Below, piece after piece: positions 4,189 to 21,778 of a DNA stretch of 21,778 bases; within the stretch, counting starts at the first letter, position 1, and the number at the start of each line of letters is the position of its first letter. The stretch is from a virus: UHGV virus genome UHGV-0133264. One strand, given 5' to 3'. Position numbers and translations under genes: made by a program. Below the pieces are notes generated by a model that saw only the letters and a program-made list of their open reading frames with translations, was not told the origin of the DNA and searched no databases.

Positions 4189-4318
4189 TTAACCGATTCT
4201 ACGAGTAGTCATTTGTTCATTGAGTAGGAATATTGTTGTCTGGGGGGTAATCAGTGTAGGTGGAATGAGGGATATGATATGGTTATCACATAATCAGGTT
4301 GTTTTGAGTAAAACAATA

Positions 4319-4346
4319 AAACGCCCTTTAATGGGCGTTTTTTTAA
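4319..4346. terminator. Bidirectional rho-independent terminator downstream of the sim-like operon
   Basis: Stem AAACGCCC, loop TTTAAT, stem GGGCGTTT, followed by TTTT on the plus strand and preceded by an A-run, so a U-tract follows the hairpin on either strand. Confidence 0.55.
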
Positions 4347-4373
4347 AACTTAAATTGACTATCCTTTCAAATA

Positions 4374-5186
4374 CTATTTTAATTCTATGTAATTTTTAAA
4401 TTCTCCCTCATATTTATACATGATGCTATCAAATCCTTCCATTACATCAACGAATTGTTGTGAACATTCCGGCTTCCAAGGCGTACACTTACGAACCATA
4501 TCCATTTTTTTCTTATCCTTCGTTGTATCGACTAAGGATAGGTACCCTATAAAATTCATCATCTGAACAGGATCTTGATTTGTGAATATATATTTGACGT
4601 TTTGCTTAGTAGGCGAAAAAGAATCAAAAGCAGGGAACATATATTCACCAGAAAAAGAGAGTGCAGCATCAATGACGTCTGTTGCAGGAGTGCAGTTGCT
4701 CAGAATTGGCACTAAGCTAAAATTAGCACCTGAGCACACTGCATATATATCATCCCCTTTTTTTAGTTTTAACAGAGAGTCTTGCTTTGAATCCAATATT
4801 TTCAATTTGATATAATTTAGTGGCGTTGCATTTTCCCCTGGAGTAAATAACTCTACAATTGGTTTATTATTCACCATTCTTATGGATTTTATTTCACCAT
4901 ACACAATTGGAATTGTGTTCCATTTTTCCTGAGCAGCAAATTCATTATCTTTAAAATCATTAACCAACTCAGATGGCAAATGATAACCAAATTGATTGTT
5001 CATTGCTTTCGAAGCAAATCCAGACAAATAGAATGCCCTTACTAAATCATAATCTTTCTTTGAGGTAGAAAGCCAATCTGGCAATTTATTATCAGCTATC
5101 GCGCTTCCAGCAAAAATAGCACAACAAAATGTTATTACATTAAATAATTTCATTTTCCATTCACTCATTAATCGGTTTAAACTCAC
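4374..5186 (-). CDS. Secreted protein with N-terminal signal peptide; Sim-like superinfection-exclusion candidate (P1 simC position)
   Basis: 270-aa ORF. Internal Met 12 (about 5153) begins MKLFNVITFCCAIFAGSAIA, a classic signal peptide with an AxA cleavage site. AT-rich coding region with many Lys and Asn codons. Confidence 0.55.
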   Translation of the reverse strand: MSLNRLMSEWKMKLFNVITFCCAIFAGSAIADNKLPDWLSTSKKDYDLVRAFYLSGFASKAMNNQFGYHLPSELVNDFKDNEFAAQEKWNTIPIVYGEIKSIRMVNNKPIVELFTPGENATPLNYIKLKILDSKQDSLLKLKKGDDIYAVCSGANFSLVPILSNCTPATDVIDAALSFSGEYMFPAFDSFSPTKQNVKYIFTNQDPVQMMNFIGYLSLVDTTKDKKKMDMVRKCTPWKPECSQQFVDVMEGFDSIMYKYEGEFKNYIELK

Positions 5187-5496
5187 TAATTAATTCACCA
5201 AGACTATTTGGGTATGCTTTATAAATAACATACTCCGAAGAGCCATCTGAATATTGGTAAACCCCATAACAGACCAGTTTATTTATTCCTTTCTGAATAG
5301 TTTTTTGATTATAAGAATCAACCACTGTTATTCCATATGACGATAATATTTCGTTATATTCTTCAATAAGAGCTTTTCTTGTTTCCACTGAATTACAATC
5401 TACCTTCGAAAAGTCAACTTCATCAGCAAAAACATTAAATGTTAAAAAGGAAAGCACTAAAAACAAACGAATCAGCATAAATCCACTCCTACGCAT
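5161..5496 (-). CDS. Small secreted protein with signal peptide (P1 simB position)
   Basis: ORF of 111 aa. The likely start is Met 7 (about 5478), preceded by AGGAG, giving MLIRLFLVLSFLTFNVFA as signal peptide. Confidence 0.5.
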   Translation of the reverse strand: MRRSGFMLIRLFLVLSFLTFNVFADEVDFSKVDCNSVETRKALIEEYNEILSSYGITVVDSYNQKTIQKGINKLVCYGVYQYSDGSSEYVIYKAYPNSLGELISEFKPINE

Positions 5497-5499
5497 GGA

Positions 5500-5631
5500 T
5501 TAATAGTCATTGATCGCAAAGGCGTAAACTTGCCAAAGGTATTTCGTATAATCGGTACAAATCTCCTTTACGCTTGATGCTGCATTAACAGTCCCAGCCA
5601 TAAATAATAACGATAGTAATAGTTTTCTCAT
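5500..5631 (-). CDS. Unlisted 43-aa secreted peptide (MRKLLLSLLFMAGTVNAASSVKEICTDYTKYLWQVYAFAINDY); P1 simA position
   Basis: Found by reading the minus strand; too short for the ORF track. AGGTGAG Shine-Dalgarno about 7 nt upstream of the ATG. Signal peptide with VNA-A cleavage site. Its stop lies 3 nt before the next gene's upstream ATG. Confidence 0.4.
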   Translation of the reverse strand: MRKLLLSLLFMAGTVNAASSVKEICTDYTKYLWQVYAFAINDY

Positions 5632-5727
5632 TATAAACTCACCTGCCTTATCACCCATTTAGGGTACATATTTTCGCCTTTAAAAAAAAGAGGTTATTAG
5701 ATCCAACTGTGTATTTATTAAGCAGAT

Positions 5728-5744
5728 AATGCTCTAATAAATTT
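5728..5744 (+). promoter_or_regulatory. C1 repressor operator (Op51-type), 16/17 match to ATTGCTCTAATAAATTT
   Basis: AATGCTCTAATAAATTT seen directly. Sits between the divergent sim-like operon and the c4-icd-ant operon, about 40 bp upstream of a consensus promoter. Confidence 0.7.
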
Positions 5745-6058: not shown

Positions 6059-6280
6059 ATGGTTAATGCCAATCCTTGCGCACGCCCAGAATTCATCTGG
6101 CGTTTCTATTCCTGTAAAAAACACCACTATCACTTCGTTATCGCAGCAACTGAAGACGAAGCACGCTCTCAATTGCCTGATGGCCCCTGCATTTTTACTG
6201 CCCGTTTTTCAACTAACTCGCGCAATTCACTTAGTTACTGGAGCCTCCCCTTCTCTGCCGACGTTCAGGGGGGTTTATGA
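6059..6280 (+). CDS. icd: Icd-like small protein (interference with cell division), translationally coupled to ant
   Basis: 73-aa ORF with GTGAGG Shine-Dalgarno. Its TGA stop overlaps the ant ATG in an ATGA arrangement. Lies immediately downstream of the c4 target repeat. Confidence 0.55.
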   Translation: MVNANPCARPEFIWRFYSCKKHHYHFVIAATEDEARSQLPDGPCIFTARFSTNSRNSLSYWSLPFSADVQGGL

Positions 6281-7323
6281 AAAAACCTCTCGTCACCCGT
6301 AATGACATAGCCGAAGCGATCGCCCTGCATACTGCCTGTATACCGACACGGGAGATCCCCGGCGCAATTGCCAACTATTTCATGATAACCAGGCGTTTTT
6401 ATACCCGAACAGATAAGGCTGTGATCAACAGGCTACTGATAGCCGAGATCAGGGATTATTTGATTGAACAAGGACGTCTACGTTACGCAACGGTGGCAGC
6501 AGAAATGAGAAAGGAGGCACATAGAATGACCAGTAATAATTTGAATGTTAAAAAACCAGCACCTGTTGCTTCAGCAACGCCAGCACCAGCCGTGAATGTC
6601 ATCCCCACCACCGGAGACACAATCGACAGCCTGACACTGTTAAAGATGGTCAATGAGGCACGGAAATTATGTAGCGAAAAACCAGTTCGCAACAATGATT
6701 TCATTGCCAGAGTTAAGGATGAGCTTGATGGGGAGGGTTACGAAATCTTCGTAACCCCTATGGATAAGAAAAAAGGTGGAGCGGATCAGGTAGTTATAGT
6801 AATGACATACAAACAAGCCCTGCGCGTTGCTGCTCGCGAATCGAAAGCGGTCCGCCGTTCGCTGATCGACAAACTGGAAGAATTGCAGCAGGCAAACTCC
6901 CCTACCCCATCGATCCCCCAAACATTACCGGAAGCACTGCGCCTGGCTGCCGAGTTAGCAGAACAGAAAATGCAGCTGGAACAACAGCTGGTGGCCGCAG
7001 CCCCTAAAGTCGATTTTGCCGACCGGGTATCAGTGGCTAATGGAATCCTGATCGGGAACTTTGCAAAGGTCGTTGGACTGAAGCAAAACGCCCTTTTCTC
7101 ATGGTTGCGCCAGAACGGCATTCTCATGGCTTTTGGTGCGCGCAAAAACGTACCGCGCCAACAGTACATCAACGCCGGGTATTTCACGGTGAAAGAAGTG
7201 GTGCTGGATGATGAAAATGGCTACCAGATACGGCTGACGCCCCAATTAACGGGTAAAGGCCAGCAGTGGTTGACTCGCAAGCTACTTGATGCTGGTTTGT
7301 TAAAACCAGTAGCAATAGGTTAA
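6277..7323 (+). CDS. ant: Antirepressor Ant1 (348 aa), with in-frame internal start for Ant2 at about 6526
   Basis: The C-terminal ~110 aa (LPEALRLAAELAEQK...APKVDFADRV...GKGQQWLTRKLLDAGLL) form an Ant/KilA C-terminal domain, about 60% identical to the C-terminus of the downstream kilA. A strong internal AAGGAGG sits 8 nt before Met 84 (MTSNNLNV...). Position after c4-icd matches the P1 immI operon. Confidence 0.75.
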   Translation: MKKPLVTRNDIAEAIALHTACIPTREIPGAIANYFMITRRFYTRTDKAVINRLLIAEIRDYLIEQGRLRYATVAAEMRKEAHRMTSNNLNVKKPAPVASATPAPAVNVIPTTGDTIDSLTLLKMVNEARKLCSEKPVRNNDFIARVKDELDGEGYEIFVTPMDKKKGGADQVVIVMTYKQALRVAARESKAVRRSLIDKLEELQQANSPTPSIPQTLPEALRLAAELAEQKMQLEQQLVAAAPKVDFADRVSVANGILIGNFAKVVGLKQNALFSWLRQNGILMAFGARKNVPRQQYINAGYFTVKEVVLDDENGYQIRLTPQLTGKGQQWLTRKLLDAGLLKPVAIG

Positions 7324-7360: not shown

Positions 7361-7400
7361 GAGCAGTTCGACCAACCCGATCTGGATCGAGTTAGAAAAA

Positions 7401-7417
7401 TTTGCTCTAATAAATTT
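7401..7417 (+). promoter_or_regulatory. C1 repressor operator (Op53-type) controlling the kilA-repL lytic replicon
   Basis: TTTGCTCTAATAAATTT, 16/17 to the C1 operator consensus, about 70 bp upstream of the kilA ATG. Confidence 0.7.
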
Positions 7418-7486: not shown

Positions 7487-8286
7487 ATGCAACAAACATT
7501 CAATGCGGATATGAATATATCAAACCTTCATCAAAATGTCGATCCTTCAACCACTCTACCTGTTATTTGTGGTGTTGAAATTACGACCGACCGCGCTGGC
7601 CGTTACAACCTTAATGCTCTACACAGAGCGAGCGGACTCGGTGCCCATAAAGCGCCAGCTCAATGGCTAAGAACGCTGTCAGCCAAACAGCTCATTGAAG
7701 AGCTTGAAAAAGAAACTATGCAGAATTGCATAGTTTCGTTCGAAGGTCGTGGCGGCGGCACTTTTGCCCATGAATTGCTCGCTGTGGAGTACGCAGGTTG
7801 GATTTCTCCCGCGTTTCGGCTGAAGGTAAACCAGACATTTATCGACTATCGAGCCGGAAGATTACAACCAGCTATTCCGCAGAGTCTCCCTGAAGCACTC
7901 CGTTTGGCAGCCGACCTGGCAGAGCAAAAGCAACGCCTGGAGCAAAAAATGCTTATGGATGCCCCTAAAGTCGAATTCGCCGAACGCGTTGCTACCGCAG
8001 CGGGGTTCTAATCGGCAACTATGCCAAAGTGCTCGGCCTGGGCCAAAACTATCTCTTCACCTGGTTGCGTGATAACGGAATTCTGATCGCAACCGGTGAA
8101 CGCAGGAACGTCCCCAAACAAGAATACATATCCCGTGGGTATTTCACCCTTAAAGAAACCGTGATCGATACAAGCAATGGAAGCAGGATTTCTTTCACGA
8201 CTCGTATAACCGGCAAAGGTCAGCAGTGGCTTATGAAGCGATTGCTTGATGCTGGTGTGCTGGTGCCTATCGCGGCGACGCGCTAA
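7487..8286 (+). pseudogene. kilA: kilA (KilA-N domain plus Ant/KilA C-terminal domain) interrupted by a 1-nt frameshift near 8005
   Basis: ORF 7487-8011 (174 aa, KilA-N-like) and ORF 8029-8286 (85 aa, C-terminal domain) are colinear with the intact ant paralogue. Around 8001-8016 the sequence CGGGGTTCTAATCGGC reads F-stop, while the +2 frame reads LIGNYAKVLGLGQN, matching ILIGNFAKVVGLKQN in ant. The span is 800 nt; one more base restores a 266-aa protein. Confidence 0.7.
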
Positions 8287-8315: not shown

Positions 8316-9161
8316 ATGCTGGCTAAAGTCACTTTCCTGAGCTGTATAACGATGAGCGATTTTACTTTTTCTGGCTATGAATTGGCCTGCTTTGTAACAC
8401 ACTCCGGTCTATCCCGTAGCGCCGGGCATATCCTGTCGCAATGTGCAAATCTCGCGGCAACAACCAGTGAATACTTCATTCACAAGCCTCACCGCCTGAT
8501 CGCGGCAGAAACTGGTTATAGCCAATCAACCGTCGTTCGTGCATTCCGTGAAGCTGTAAACAAAGGAATCCTGTCTGTAGAGATTGTTATCGGCGATCAC
8601 CGTGAACGCCGCGCTAACCTGTACCGGTTTACACCATCCTTTTTGGCCTTCGCACAACAAGCTAAAAACGCGCTGACTGAAAGCAAATTAAAGATCTCTT
8701 CAGCCGCAACCAAGGTTAAAGCTGTTCTCGCTAAGACATTGGCTTTATTTGATTTTTTATCCACACCCCCATGTCAAAATGATACCCCCTCCCCCTGTCA
8801 GGATGACGTGGCAATAAAGAATAAGAAGTCACAAGTTAAAAAAACAAAAAGATCAGTTTCCGGCGGTGCCGGAACGACCAGACTCAAAAAATTGACTTCA
8901 TGGATCGCTGAGGCAAAAGCAAAGGCTGACAATCTGCGGTTATCCAAAAAACGCGCTCAAAAACATGAGTTCAAGCAGAAAGTAGAGGCGGCTGCGCGGA
9001 AATATGCTTACCTGAAGAACAAGCGTTCGCCTGATATTGGCGGGATATCAAACTTCGATAACCTACCGCATTGCATGACGGTAAACGAAGCTCTTAATGC
9101 GGTTTTAGCCAAAAATAAAGATAACGAACAATGGGGTATACCGGCGGGATTCAGAGGGTGA
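8316..9161 (+). CDS. repL: RepL, initiator of the lytic replicon (origin expected inside the gene)
   Basis: 281-aa ORF directly downstream of kilA under the Op53 operator. The stretch from MSDFTFSGYELACFV onward matches my recollection of P1 RepL. An alternative start at Met 13 (8352) is possible. Confidence 0.75.
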   Translation: MLAKVTFLSCITMSDFTFSGYELACFVTHSGLSRSAGHILSQCANLAATTSEYFIHKPHRLIAAETGYSQSTVVRAFREAVNKGILSVEIVIGDHRERRANLYRFTPSFLAFAQQAKNALTESKLKISSAATKVKAVLAKTLALFDFLSTPPCQNDTPSPCQDDVAIKNKKSQVKKTKRSVSGGAGTTRLKKLTSWIAEAKAKADNLRLSKKRAQKHEFKQKVEAAARKYAYLKNKRSPDIGGISNFDNLPHCMTVNEALNAVLAKNKDNEQWGIPAGFRG

Positions 9162-9211
9162 TAGATTGCTCTAATCTGGAGTCACCTGGCGTTTTCAGTT
9201 TGAGGTCGGAG

Positions 9212-9457
9212 ATGCAATCTGATTTTTTACAGTTAGCGATCGCTTTTGCAGGATATGTTTGCATTGGCTTCTGTGTATACATGATCAGCCGAAAAATACT
9301 TGTCGATATCGACCGCAAAGAACGAGCAGAGGAAATCTTAGTATGGATTTTCTTTGGCGCGGTCTGGCCATTAGGGATCATGTTTGCTGCAACATTTCTT
9401 CTGATGTGGATATTCACCCTTCCAGGTGATTTCTATAGAAAAAAAGCCAGACATTGA
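9212..9457 (+). CDS. Small two-helix membrane protein (possible P1 rlfA position)
   Basis: Listed ORF 9131-9457; the likely start is the internal ATG at 9212 with GAGG upstream, giving MQSDFLQLAIAFAGYVCIGFCVYMI... Two hydrophobic segments. Confidence 0.4.
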   Translation: MQSDFLQLAIAFAGYVCIGFCVYMISRKILVDIDRKERAEEILVWIFFGAVWPLGIMFAATFLLMWIFTLPGDFYRKKARH

Positions 9458-9639
9458 TACACCCGCTGCGGGTGCTTGAGGCTATCTGCTTCAGGCATTA
9501 CCCGACAAGCAGATAGAAAAAAGCCCCAGATAACATTACGCGTCCTGCAAGACGCTTAACATTAATCTGAGGCCATATCTATGCTTAGCATACGTAGATT
9601 AGCCCTCTCCCCTTTTAAGGAGCAAGGAATTTTTTACTG

Positions 9640-10272
9640 CTATGCCGCCTTTCCAGTTATGGATTCAGCGACAAGAACAACCCCATGCTTACTTCGATCT
9701 GGGTGTTCACTCCATATCTCGGATTCAGGAATACTTTCCCCGTCATAGCAAACACGTTCGCCGTCAAACGGGTAATACTGAGCGGCATCGGTGTCGAGGA
9801 TAAACACTTTTAGCTCGGAAGAGCGACGGGCGATGTGTTGCCAAAGAGCTTTTCCACCTTCGTATTGCTCATTATCACTGAGCAAAACAACACCAGCTTT
9901 TGAGGCTACGGTTTCGTAAACAAAAGTAGCTAAACCGACATCCCGGACGGTTCCATCAACCACGATACCTTCAATCTGGGCAACATCGCTATCCTCCCAG
10001 AACTTCCTTACCAGTACGCCTTCAAGCTGCGGGCGACGTTGAAGTTCAAGAGTAGCGACAACCTTATGGCGCATATCACCATCGATAACAGAAGGCGCAG
10101 CCTCTATTACAGCTGCAAATGGGGTTTTGGAATCCCATATAACCTGGTAAAGCACACCCTGGATGGTAACTCCGTCCAGGATCGAAAATCGACGAGCGAC
10201 AGTACCCGGGGAGTACGACATTGGAATCACAGCCATTTTAGAGTCCCCCTTTAACAGTACAGGCACAAACAT
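9640..10272 (-). CDS. Hypothetical protein (possible rlfB/pmgF position)
   Basis: 210-aa ORF. The likely start is Met 13 (about 10236), preceded by AAGGGGGA. Monocistronic: promoter-like AT-rich region upstream and the terminator of the neighbouring operon beyond it. Confidence 0.5.
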   Translation of the reverse strand: MFVPVLLKGDSKMAVIPMSYSPGTVARRFSILDGVTIQGVLYQVIWDSKTPFAAVIEAAPSVIDGDMRHKVVATLELQRRPQLEGVLVRKFWEDSDVAQIEGIVVDGTVRDVGLATFVYETVASKAGVVLLSDNEQYEGGKALWQHIARRSSELKVFILDTDAAQYYPFDGERVCYDGESIPESEIWSEHPDRSKHGVVLVAESITGKAA

Positions 10273-10363
10273 CTACCTCAATAATTGTAGTTTATTAGAA
10301 CATTAATAATCTAACATAAAACTCCAGACAATGTTATCGATGCATTTTTATATAAAAAGGTTA

Positions 10364-10386
10364 TAAAAAAAGCTCCCGAAGGAGCT
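10364..10386 (-). terminator. Rho-independent terminator ending the late head/sheath/tube operon
   Basis: On the minus strand: stem AGCTCC, loop TTCG, stem GGAGCT, followed by TTTTTTT. Lies about 20 bp after the stop of the 169-aa gene. Confidence 0.7.
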
Positions 10387-10407
10387 TTAAAATACAAGGG
10401 ATGACTC

Positions 10408-21616: not shown

Positions 21617-21778
21617 GAAACAGGATCACCAACGCATACGATCCCTTTCCCGTTGACGGTAAACCATGCCCTGGTTGATATAGCTTGCCCGCCGTGCGTG
21701 CTGTTCCCATCGGTATGTTGTGCATATTGCTTACCATCAACTAACACTTCGACTCCGTTGACTTTAAGTAGTGGAGAT
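21568..21778 (-). CDS. Partial gene (5' end outside window) with PAAR-like C-terminus, possible tail-spike tip protein
   Basis: Minus-strand reading gives ...VDGKQYAQHTDGNSTHGGQAISTRAWFTVNGKGIVCVGDPVSCGSTVAAGDGLVQVS-stop. The pattern resembles a PAAR repeat. The stop is followed within 10 nt by the next gene's Shine-Dalgarno. Not in the ORF track because it has no start in the window. Confidence 0.4.
   Translation of the reverse strand, partial: SPLLKVNGVEVLVDGKQYAQHTDGNSTHGGQAISTRAWFTVNGKGIVCVGDPVSCGSTVAAGDGLVQVS

Follow-up and report, generated by a model that had tools for sequence, protein, structure and literature searches.

The kilA gene of the bacteriophages P1 and P7 (NC_005856, P1_gp049/YP_006517.1; AF503408, AAQ07518.1) stands first in the C1-controlled kilA-repL lytic-replicon operon. 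The P1 protein kills the host when expressed (PMC9948254), and kilA is described as lethal upon expression and as unneeded for P1 lytic replication or plaque formation (PMC9948254; PMC10695390). The GenBank annotations X15638 and X15639 likewise list the gene as dispensable for lytic growth. In a comparison of 77 P1-like phage-plasmids kilA was placed among the 21 "extremely conserved" genes (PMC9603915). Its ANT/KilAC domain is shared with the P1 antirepressor ant1/ant2, which differs from KilA in having no KilA-N domain and in being under the control of the C4 antisense RNA. For Phi11 Gp07, growth inhibition is reported to map to the C-terminal KilA/Ant-like domain (PMC5944126).

Here we analyzed a stretch of 21,778 nt (referred to as the window), which corresponds to the whole metagenome contig ena:ERZ1753986:NODE_433_length_21778_cov_3.91663 and has a SPAdes-style header with a mean k-mer coverage of about 3.9. 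It represents a segment of a P1/P7-like phage-plasmid with the gene order sit-tub...icd-ant-kilA-repL...23-parBA-repA, and its best match among plasmids covers 96% of its length at 96.7% identity. As in P1 and P7, kilA is located between ant1/2 and repL behind PkilA (P53) and Op53. The alignment is collinear, and the kilA region shows 98.1–98.8% nucleotide identity to P1/P7 over 1001 nt, with 99.4 and 98.9% identity for the two pieces of the protein. Based on the annotation of NC_005856 and AF503408, which was transferred by gap-free alignment, the PkilA (P53) promoter with the overlapping C1 operator Op53 lies at positions 7383-7417 (+ strand). The operator itself, which controls kilA-repL, covers 7401-7417 (+, TTTGCTCTAATAAATTT). 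The repL gene at 8316-9161 (+), which encodes the lytic replication initiator and contains oriL, is intact with 281 aa and 98.9% identity to P7 RepL over the full length. On the other side of kilA, the ORF list, tblastn and Pfam agree that ant1 (6277-7323, +) is, as stated in the initial annotation, an intact paralogue, and that it has the C-terminal ANT/KilAC domain in common with KilA; the amino-acid identity to the product of 7999-8274 is 63%.

Two regions of the window differ in gene content from P7. At 9162-10400, a known variable region of P1-like plasmids, the rlfA-rlfB(rapA/B)-pmgF segment of P1/P7 is replaced by an ORF for 81 aa at 9212-9454 (+, phrog_3772) and an ORF for 208-210 aa at 9640-10272 (-, phrog_7522). 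The latter has no Pfam match, and its N-terminus shows 47% identity to P7 Upf52.1/PmgF. The second region (4217-5730) does not align to P7 and carries ORFs for 259 and 105 aa in place of upf50.0/upf50.5, as is also the case in p64EVA-6. Other members of the clone described below have SH3/YfjT/phytase-like genes at this position, and because the contents differ between clone members we regard it as a swap-prone accessory slot near the immI region.

The kilA gene of the window is split into two parts, and the proposal that the two ORFs represent the N- and C-terminal half of a single KilA-N plus Ant-C protein is supported by two types of evidence. When the KilA proteins of P7 and p64EVA-6 were used as tblastn queries, both gave two collinear pieces, one with residues 1-173 in frame 2 (7487-8005) and one with residues 172-266 in frame 1 (7999-8283). 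In addition, Pfam assigned KilA-N (PF04383) to the first piece and ANT/KilAC (PF03374) to the second, and both domains are present in the intact P7 KilA, where ANT/KilAC spans residues 152-254. The 5' part at 7487-8011 (+) consists of 174 codons and a TAA stop, with KilA-N at residues 27-123 (ORF list, alignment, tblastn and Pfam). The 3' part at 7999-8286 (+, frame 1) comprises residues 172-266 with the stop codon and contains most of the ANT/KilAC domain; the 85-aa ORF listed within it at 8029-8286 (+) begins with a GTG at 8029. We found no Shine-Dalgarno-like sequence upstream of this GTG, and the gene caller of the source assembly had called no gene at the 3' part. Thus, with the frames joined the window KilA has the P1/P7 architecture of KilA-N followed by ANT/KilAC, but as it stands the two domains lie in two frames and the first ORF ends after 174 codons instead of 266. 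As the initial annotation also held, a single missing nucleotide separates the halves: the kilA span amounts to 800 nt in the window versus 801 nt in P1, P7 and pE166-P1, and compared with P1/P7 one C is missing at nucleotide 512/513 of the gene.

The exact position of the lesion was derived from the alignment and the gap listing, and it differs from the first description. One C of an ancestral CC doublet in codon 171 is missing (ACCGCCAGCGGGG to ACCGCAGCGGGG), with the junction at 7998-7999 (+). The gap is placed unambiguously by the alignment, which reads ACCGCCAGCGGGGTTC in P1/P7 and the other relatives and ACCGCAGCGGGGTTC in the window. The shifted frame continues with GCA GCG GGG TTC TAA and reaches the premature TAA at 8009-8011 (+), so that the protein ends with A-G-F after 171 native residues. 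It would retain KilA-N and the linker and lose residues 172-266, which includes about 80% of the ANT/KilAC domain. The G-run at 8002-8005 (+), right after which the frameshift had been assumed to occur, begins 3-4 nt downstream of the junction and has four G in every compared sequence (alignment, IMG/VR loci). In some IMG/VR variants GGA or GCT occurs close by, but the frame is kept in all of them. Slippage in the G-run is therefore excluded as the lesion by the unchanged run length, and as the CC to C change sits upstream of the run, the suggestion of a homopolymer error does not apply: no run of about four or more bases has changed in length. We also considered gene conversion from ant as the origin of the window-specific substitutions near the site, but only two of the five match ant. 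All of these substitutions affect third positions and are common to the whole intact clone, and consequently they have no bearing on the deletion.

The deletion is restricted to this contig. An 81-nt query across the site retrieved 510 records of plasmids and 513 of complete E. coli genomes, and none of them matched the junction at 100%; the best matches differ only by the gap. Likewise, the exact 30-nt junction was absent from GTDB representative genomes, IMG/VR and JGI metagenomes, and of the 80 best IMG/VR loci 78 were readable, all of which have an uninterrupted kilA of 266 codons. A protein look-up recovered the exact 174-aa product on one contig only. A KilA of "174 aa" nevertheless recurs in protein databases, because kilA deletions upstream of 8009 run into the same TAA and end in 174-aa products. 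The alignment and the junction searches thus revealed no relative that shares the deletion or has a kilA that is naturally divided into two ORFs at this site, and together with the intact gene in contigs of identical background this rules out a lineage-specific two-ORF arrangement.

When the Ant, RepL and 208-aa proteins of the window were used as queries, they led to contigs that belong to the same clone but stem from other samples. The longest alignment was obtained with the 91-kb contig ERZ27230629 k119_16832, which matches window 16-20266 (20,251 nt) with 0 mismatches and a single gap, the missing C. The same result of 0 mismatches and one gap was obtained for ERZ28639843 scaffold_181 (15,000 nt), ERZ1749296 NODE_607 (cov 3.69; 10,840 nt), ERZ1749900 NODE_1913 (cov 3.54), the NCBI assembly GCA_052443945.1 (DBJYTR010000015.1) and six further loci. 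All in all, the 91-kb contig and ten other loci differ from the window by the missing C alone, and all of them have the CC doublet and a 266-aa KilA. Since the split from this intact clone the window sequence has acquired no substitution at all, and the more diverged clone members are distinguished by 42 substitutions and no other indel. The haplotype, at 0 mismatches over 10-20 kb, is found in unrelated public samples, namely ENA metagenomes, contigs of the human-gut project PRJNA240307 and an NCBI isolate assembly, and judged from these sequence matches it appears to be a widely disseminated P1-like phage-plasmid clone. ERZ1749900, ERZ1749296 and ERZ1753986 are SPAdes assemblies with similar names, close ENA accessions and near-equal, very low coverage (3.54, 3.69 and 3.92, respectively); this similarity could reflect a common cohort or subject, or a low level of carry-over from one library to another.

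On balance, we hold with moderate confidence that the missing C is most likely a consensus error of a low-coverage assembly, and we infer a technical cause. According to this explanation, the plasmid in the sample would have a normal 266-codon kilA, and a read or PCR indel would have been kept in the consensus at a position covered by one or two reads. The depth is indeed low (contig mean cov_3.91663), and the deletion is a singleton on an otherwise identical haplotype, as indicated by 0 mismatches and one gap over 20,251 nt of the 91-kb contig and by the ten other loci. It occurs on no other contig, and in the similarly named assemblies ERZ1749296 and ERZ1749900 the kilA of the clone is uninterrupted. 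Furthermore, a lone indel fits poorly with the real variation of the clone, because the diverged members show 42 substitutions versus no indel. Positions 1-15 of the window are an Illumina adapter tail (GTGCTCTTCCGATCT), and therefore the reads were evidently not trimmed before assembly; the last four bases (21775-21778) align to no relative. The doubt about contig quality that had been raised because of the adapter is borne out by this tail and by the coverage of 3.9 in the header, and at so low a coverage a single-base call cannot be trusted.

Several observations weigh against an error. The contig is otherwise clean, with 0 mismatches over 20 kb, and the 23 other genes compared by tblastn are each full length in a single frame. 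Other 1-nt indels relative to P7 and p64EVA-6 lie between genes, and the ones in 16-20266 reflect real lineage variation, since they are also present in the 91-kb contig. The lengths of intergenic G-runs match those of independent assemblies. A generally error-prone, frameshift-rich assembly can hence be dismissed. Moreover, no repeated k-mer of at least 15 nt spans the junction, which excludes an artefact of the assembly graph due to repeats, and genuine sporadic 1-nt deletions of kilA exist in other assemblies. Illumina indels are rare outside long homopolymers, and a CC doublet is not known as an error hotspot. An error and a mutation are both rare events, and order-of-magnitude estimates for the two, which draw on general Illumina indel rates and not on the present data, came out similar.

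The other member of the pair put forward in the initial annotation, a genuine inactivating deletion, was the right alternative to weigh, and the low coverage backs the concern about the assembly. In this case the window would contain a private and very recent loss-of-function allele, which arose after the split from the otherwise identical intact clone. We regard this as a serious possibility, but tend to think that it does not apply. In its favor are the otherwise clean assembly and the position of the lesion outside of any homopolymer, and as P1 can replicate lytically and form plaques without kilA, which is lethal when expressed, a null allele would be tolerated. Comparable lesions are also on record, with private 1-nt deletions or truncations in public assemblies including isolates (P0002, P0008, P0138 and P0147). 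The loci L087/L088, L089 and L090 have private 1-nt deletions in kilA at codons 118, 151 and 183. The deletion at codon 118 (TTT to TT) was obtained with two assemblers (ENA ERZ28601993 and Logan ERR11509840), the one at codon 151 (GG to G) is found in a Logan contig, and the one at codon 183 (a single C) in the isolate assembly GCA_041021115.1. The truncation alleles P0008, P0004, P0002 and P0138 are, like the allele of the window, private or rare, and several of them are 1-nt deletions in runs of 1-3 nt. They differ from it in position: the other truncation alleles lie at codons 118, 151, 183 and about 189, and the lesion of the window is the only one at codon 171. A recurrent in-frame allele is far more common than any of these frameshift alleles: P0122 (241 aa), which was found in 30 contigs from Salmonella and E. 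coli, is devoid of 25 residues (GNYAKVLGLGQNYLFTWLRDNGILI) as a result of a deletion between the repeated ...GVLI/...GILI motifs inside ANT/KilAC.

Against a genuine allele stand its singleton status on an identical 20-kb background in a 3.9x contig, the intact gene of the same clone in ERZ1749296 and ERZ1749900 and the ratio of 42 substitutions to 0 indels in the real variation of the clone. A further argument is the strong conservation of kilA without any sign of selection for its loss. Of the 520 complete-genome E. coli records, 510 have a collinear kilA of full length, and its span is exactly 801 nt in 58 out of 60 records of a spread sample. The kilA of the window lineage differs from that of P7 by ten synonymous substitutions and one non-synonymous substitution. 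The idea that loss of this host-killing function would be selected in a resident plasmid prophage is unsupported in view of this wide conservation, to which the 78 of 78 intact IMG/VR loci and the listing among the extremely conserved genes (PMC9603915) also belong.

If the deletion is genuine, the C-terminal part of kilA would be untranslated or hardly translated, and host killing by the truncated protein would probably be lost or weakened. This expectation is drawn by analogy from Phi11 Gp07: with growth inhibition reported to map to the C-terminal domain, a truncated KilA could well be non-toxic. The lytic replicon itself should hardly be concerned. PkilA (P53), Op53, the start codon of kilA and repL with its upstream ribosome-binding region are identical to those of the intact clones, and the last 24-53 bp of kilA, from which the repL ribosome-binding site is derived, are unchanged. 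The suggested consequence for the firing of the lytic replicon is thus not supported; any effect of the deletion on repL is expected to be small, and repL and lytic growth would be essentially unaffected. The 304 nt between 8012 and 8315, which would be untranslated ahead of repL, contain no marked C-rich, G-poor stretch (C/G ratio at most 1.4, a weak heuristic only), so a strong Rho-dependent polarity on repL is not predicted and was rejected on these grounds.

A third explanation, to which we give very little credence, assumes that the two frames are joined in expression. If tRNA-Gly slipped by -1 on G GGG (8002-8005), either as a programmed frameshift or in a leaky hypomorph, the outcome would be a 266-aa KilA(S172A). 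Judged from the sequence, the P-site tRNA on GGG 8003-8005 could re-pair with GGG 8002-8004, the -1 frame from the G-run would be the native frame and the stop of the 0 frame would follow two codons on. However, the two-frame arrangement exists in no relative of any collection, which excludes that the G-run of kilA has evolved as a site of recoding. G GGG TTC departs from the X XXY YYZ form of canonical slippery heptamers, and the fold of the downstream 90 nt is no better than that of shuffled sequence (z = -0.34). In addition, the flanks are identical in all intact kilA genes, where no frameshift is needed. On account of the unconserved arrangement, the non-canonical heptamer and the fold we discard a programmed -1 frameshift. 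It is just as improbable that a genuine deletion behaves as a leaky hypomorph, in which most ribosomes would stop at 8009-8011 and produce a KilA-N-only protein and a small fraction would slip by -1 to give KilA(S172A); if true, this would represent naturally attenuated host killing in a resident phage-plasmid.

Finally, a misassembly or chimera via the ant paralogue, another repeat or a mixture of P1-like strains is conceivable in that the C-terminal domains of ant and kilA are homologous and several P1-like plasmids are often present per metagenome, but it is close to refuted and would be most surprising, as ant and kilA have no exact word of more than 14 nt in common, the one of 14 nt lies 37 nt from the junction, no junction-spanning 15-mer or 21-mer recurs in the window, and both flanks are identical to a single known haplotype, which leaves no room for a chimeric join.

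Taken as a consensus error or as a real mutation, the split kilA goes back to the private loss of a single base from a gene that is well known and dispensable, a lesion known in kind and ordinary either way. If it is an error, the lesson is not to take a frameshift for biology when the coverage of a contig is only about 4x; here the adapter had been left untrimmed as well. If it is genuine, it would add a further sporadic null allele to a gene that P1 does not need for lytic growth, and the only conclusion would be that a P1-like plasmid in the wild is able to survive when full-length KilA is missing. Among more than 500 resident P1-like plasmids an interrupted kilA is a rare exception, so it is the conservation of this gene, rather than its loss, that needs explaining.
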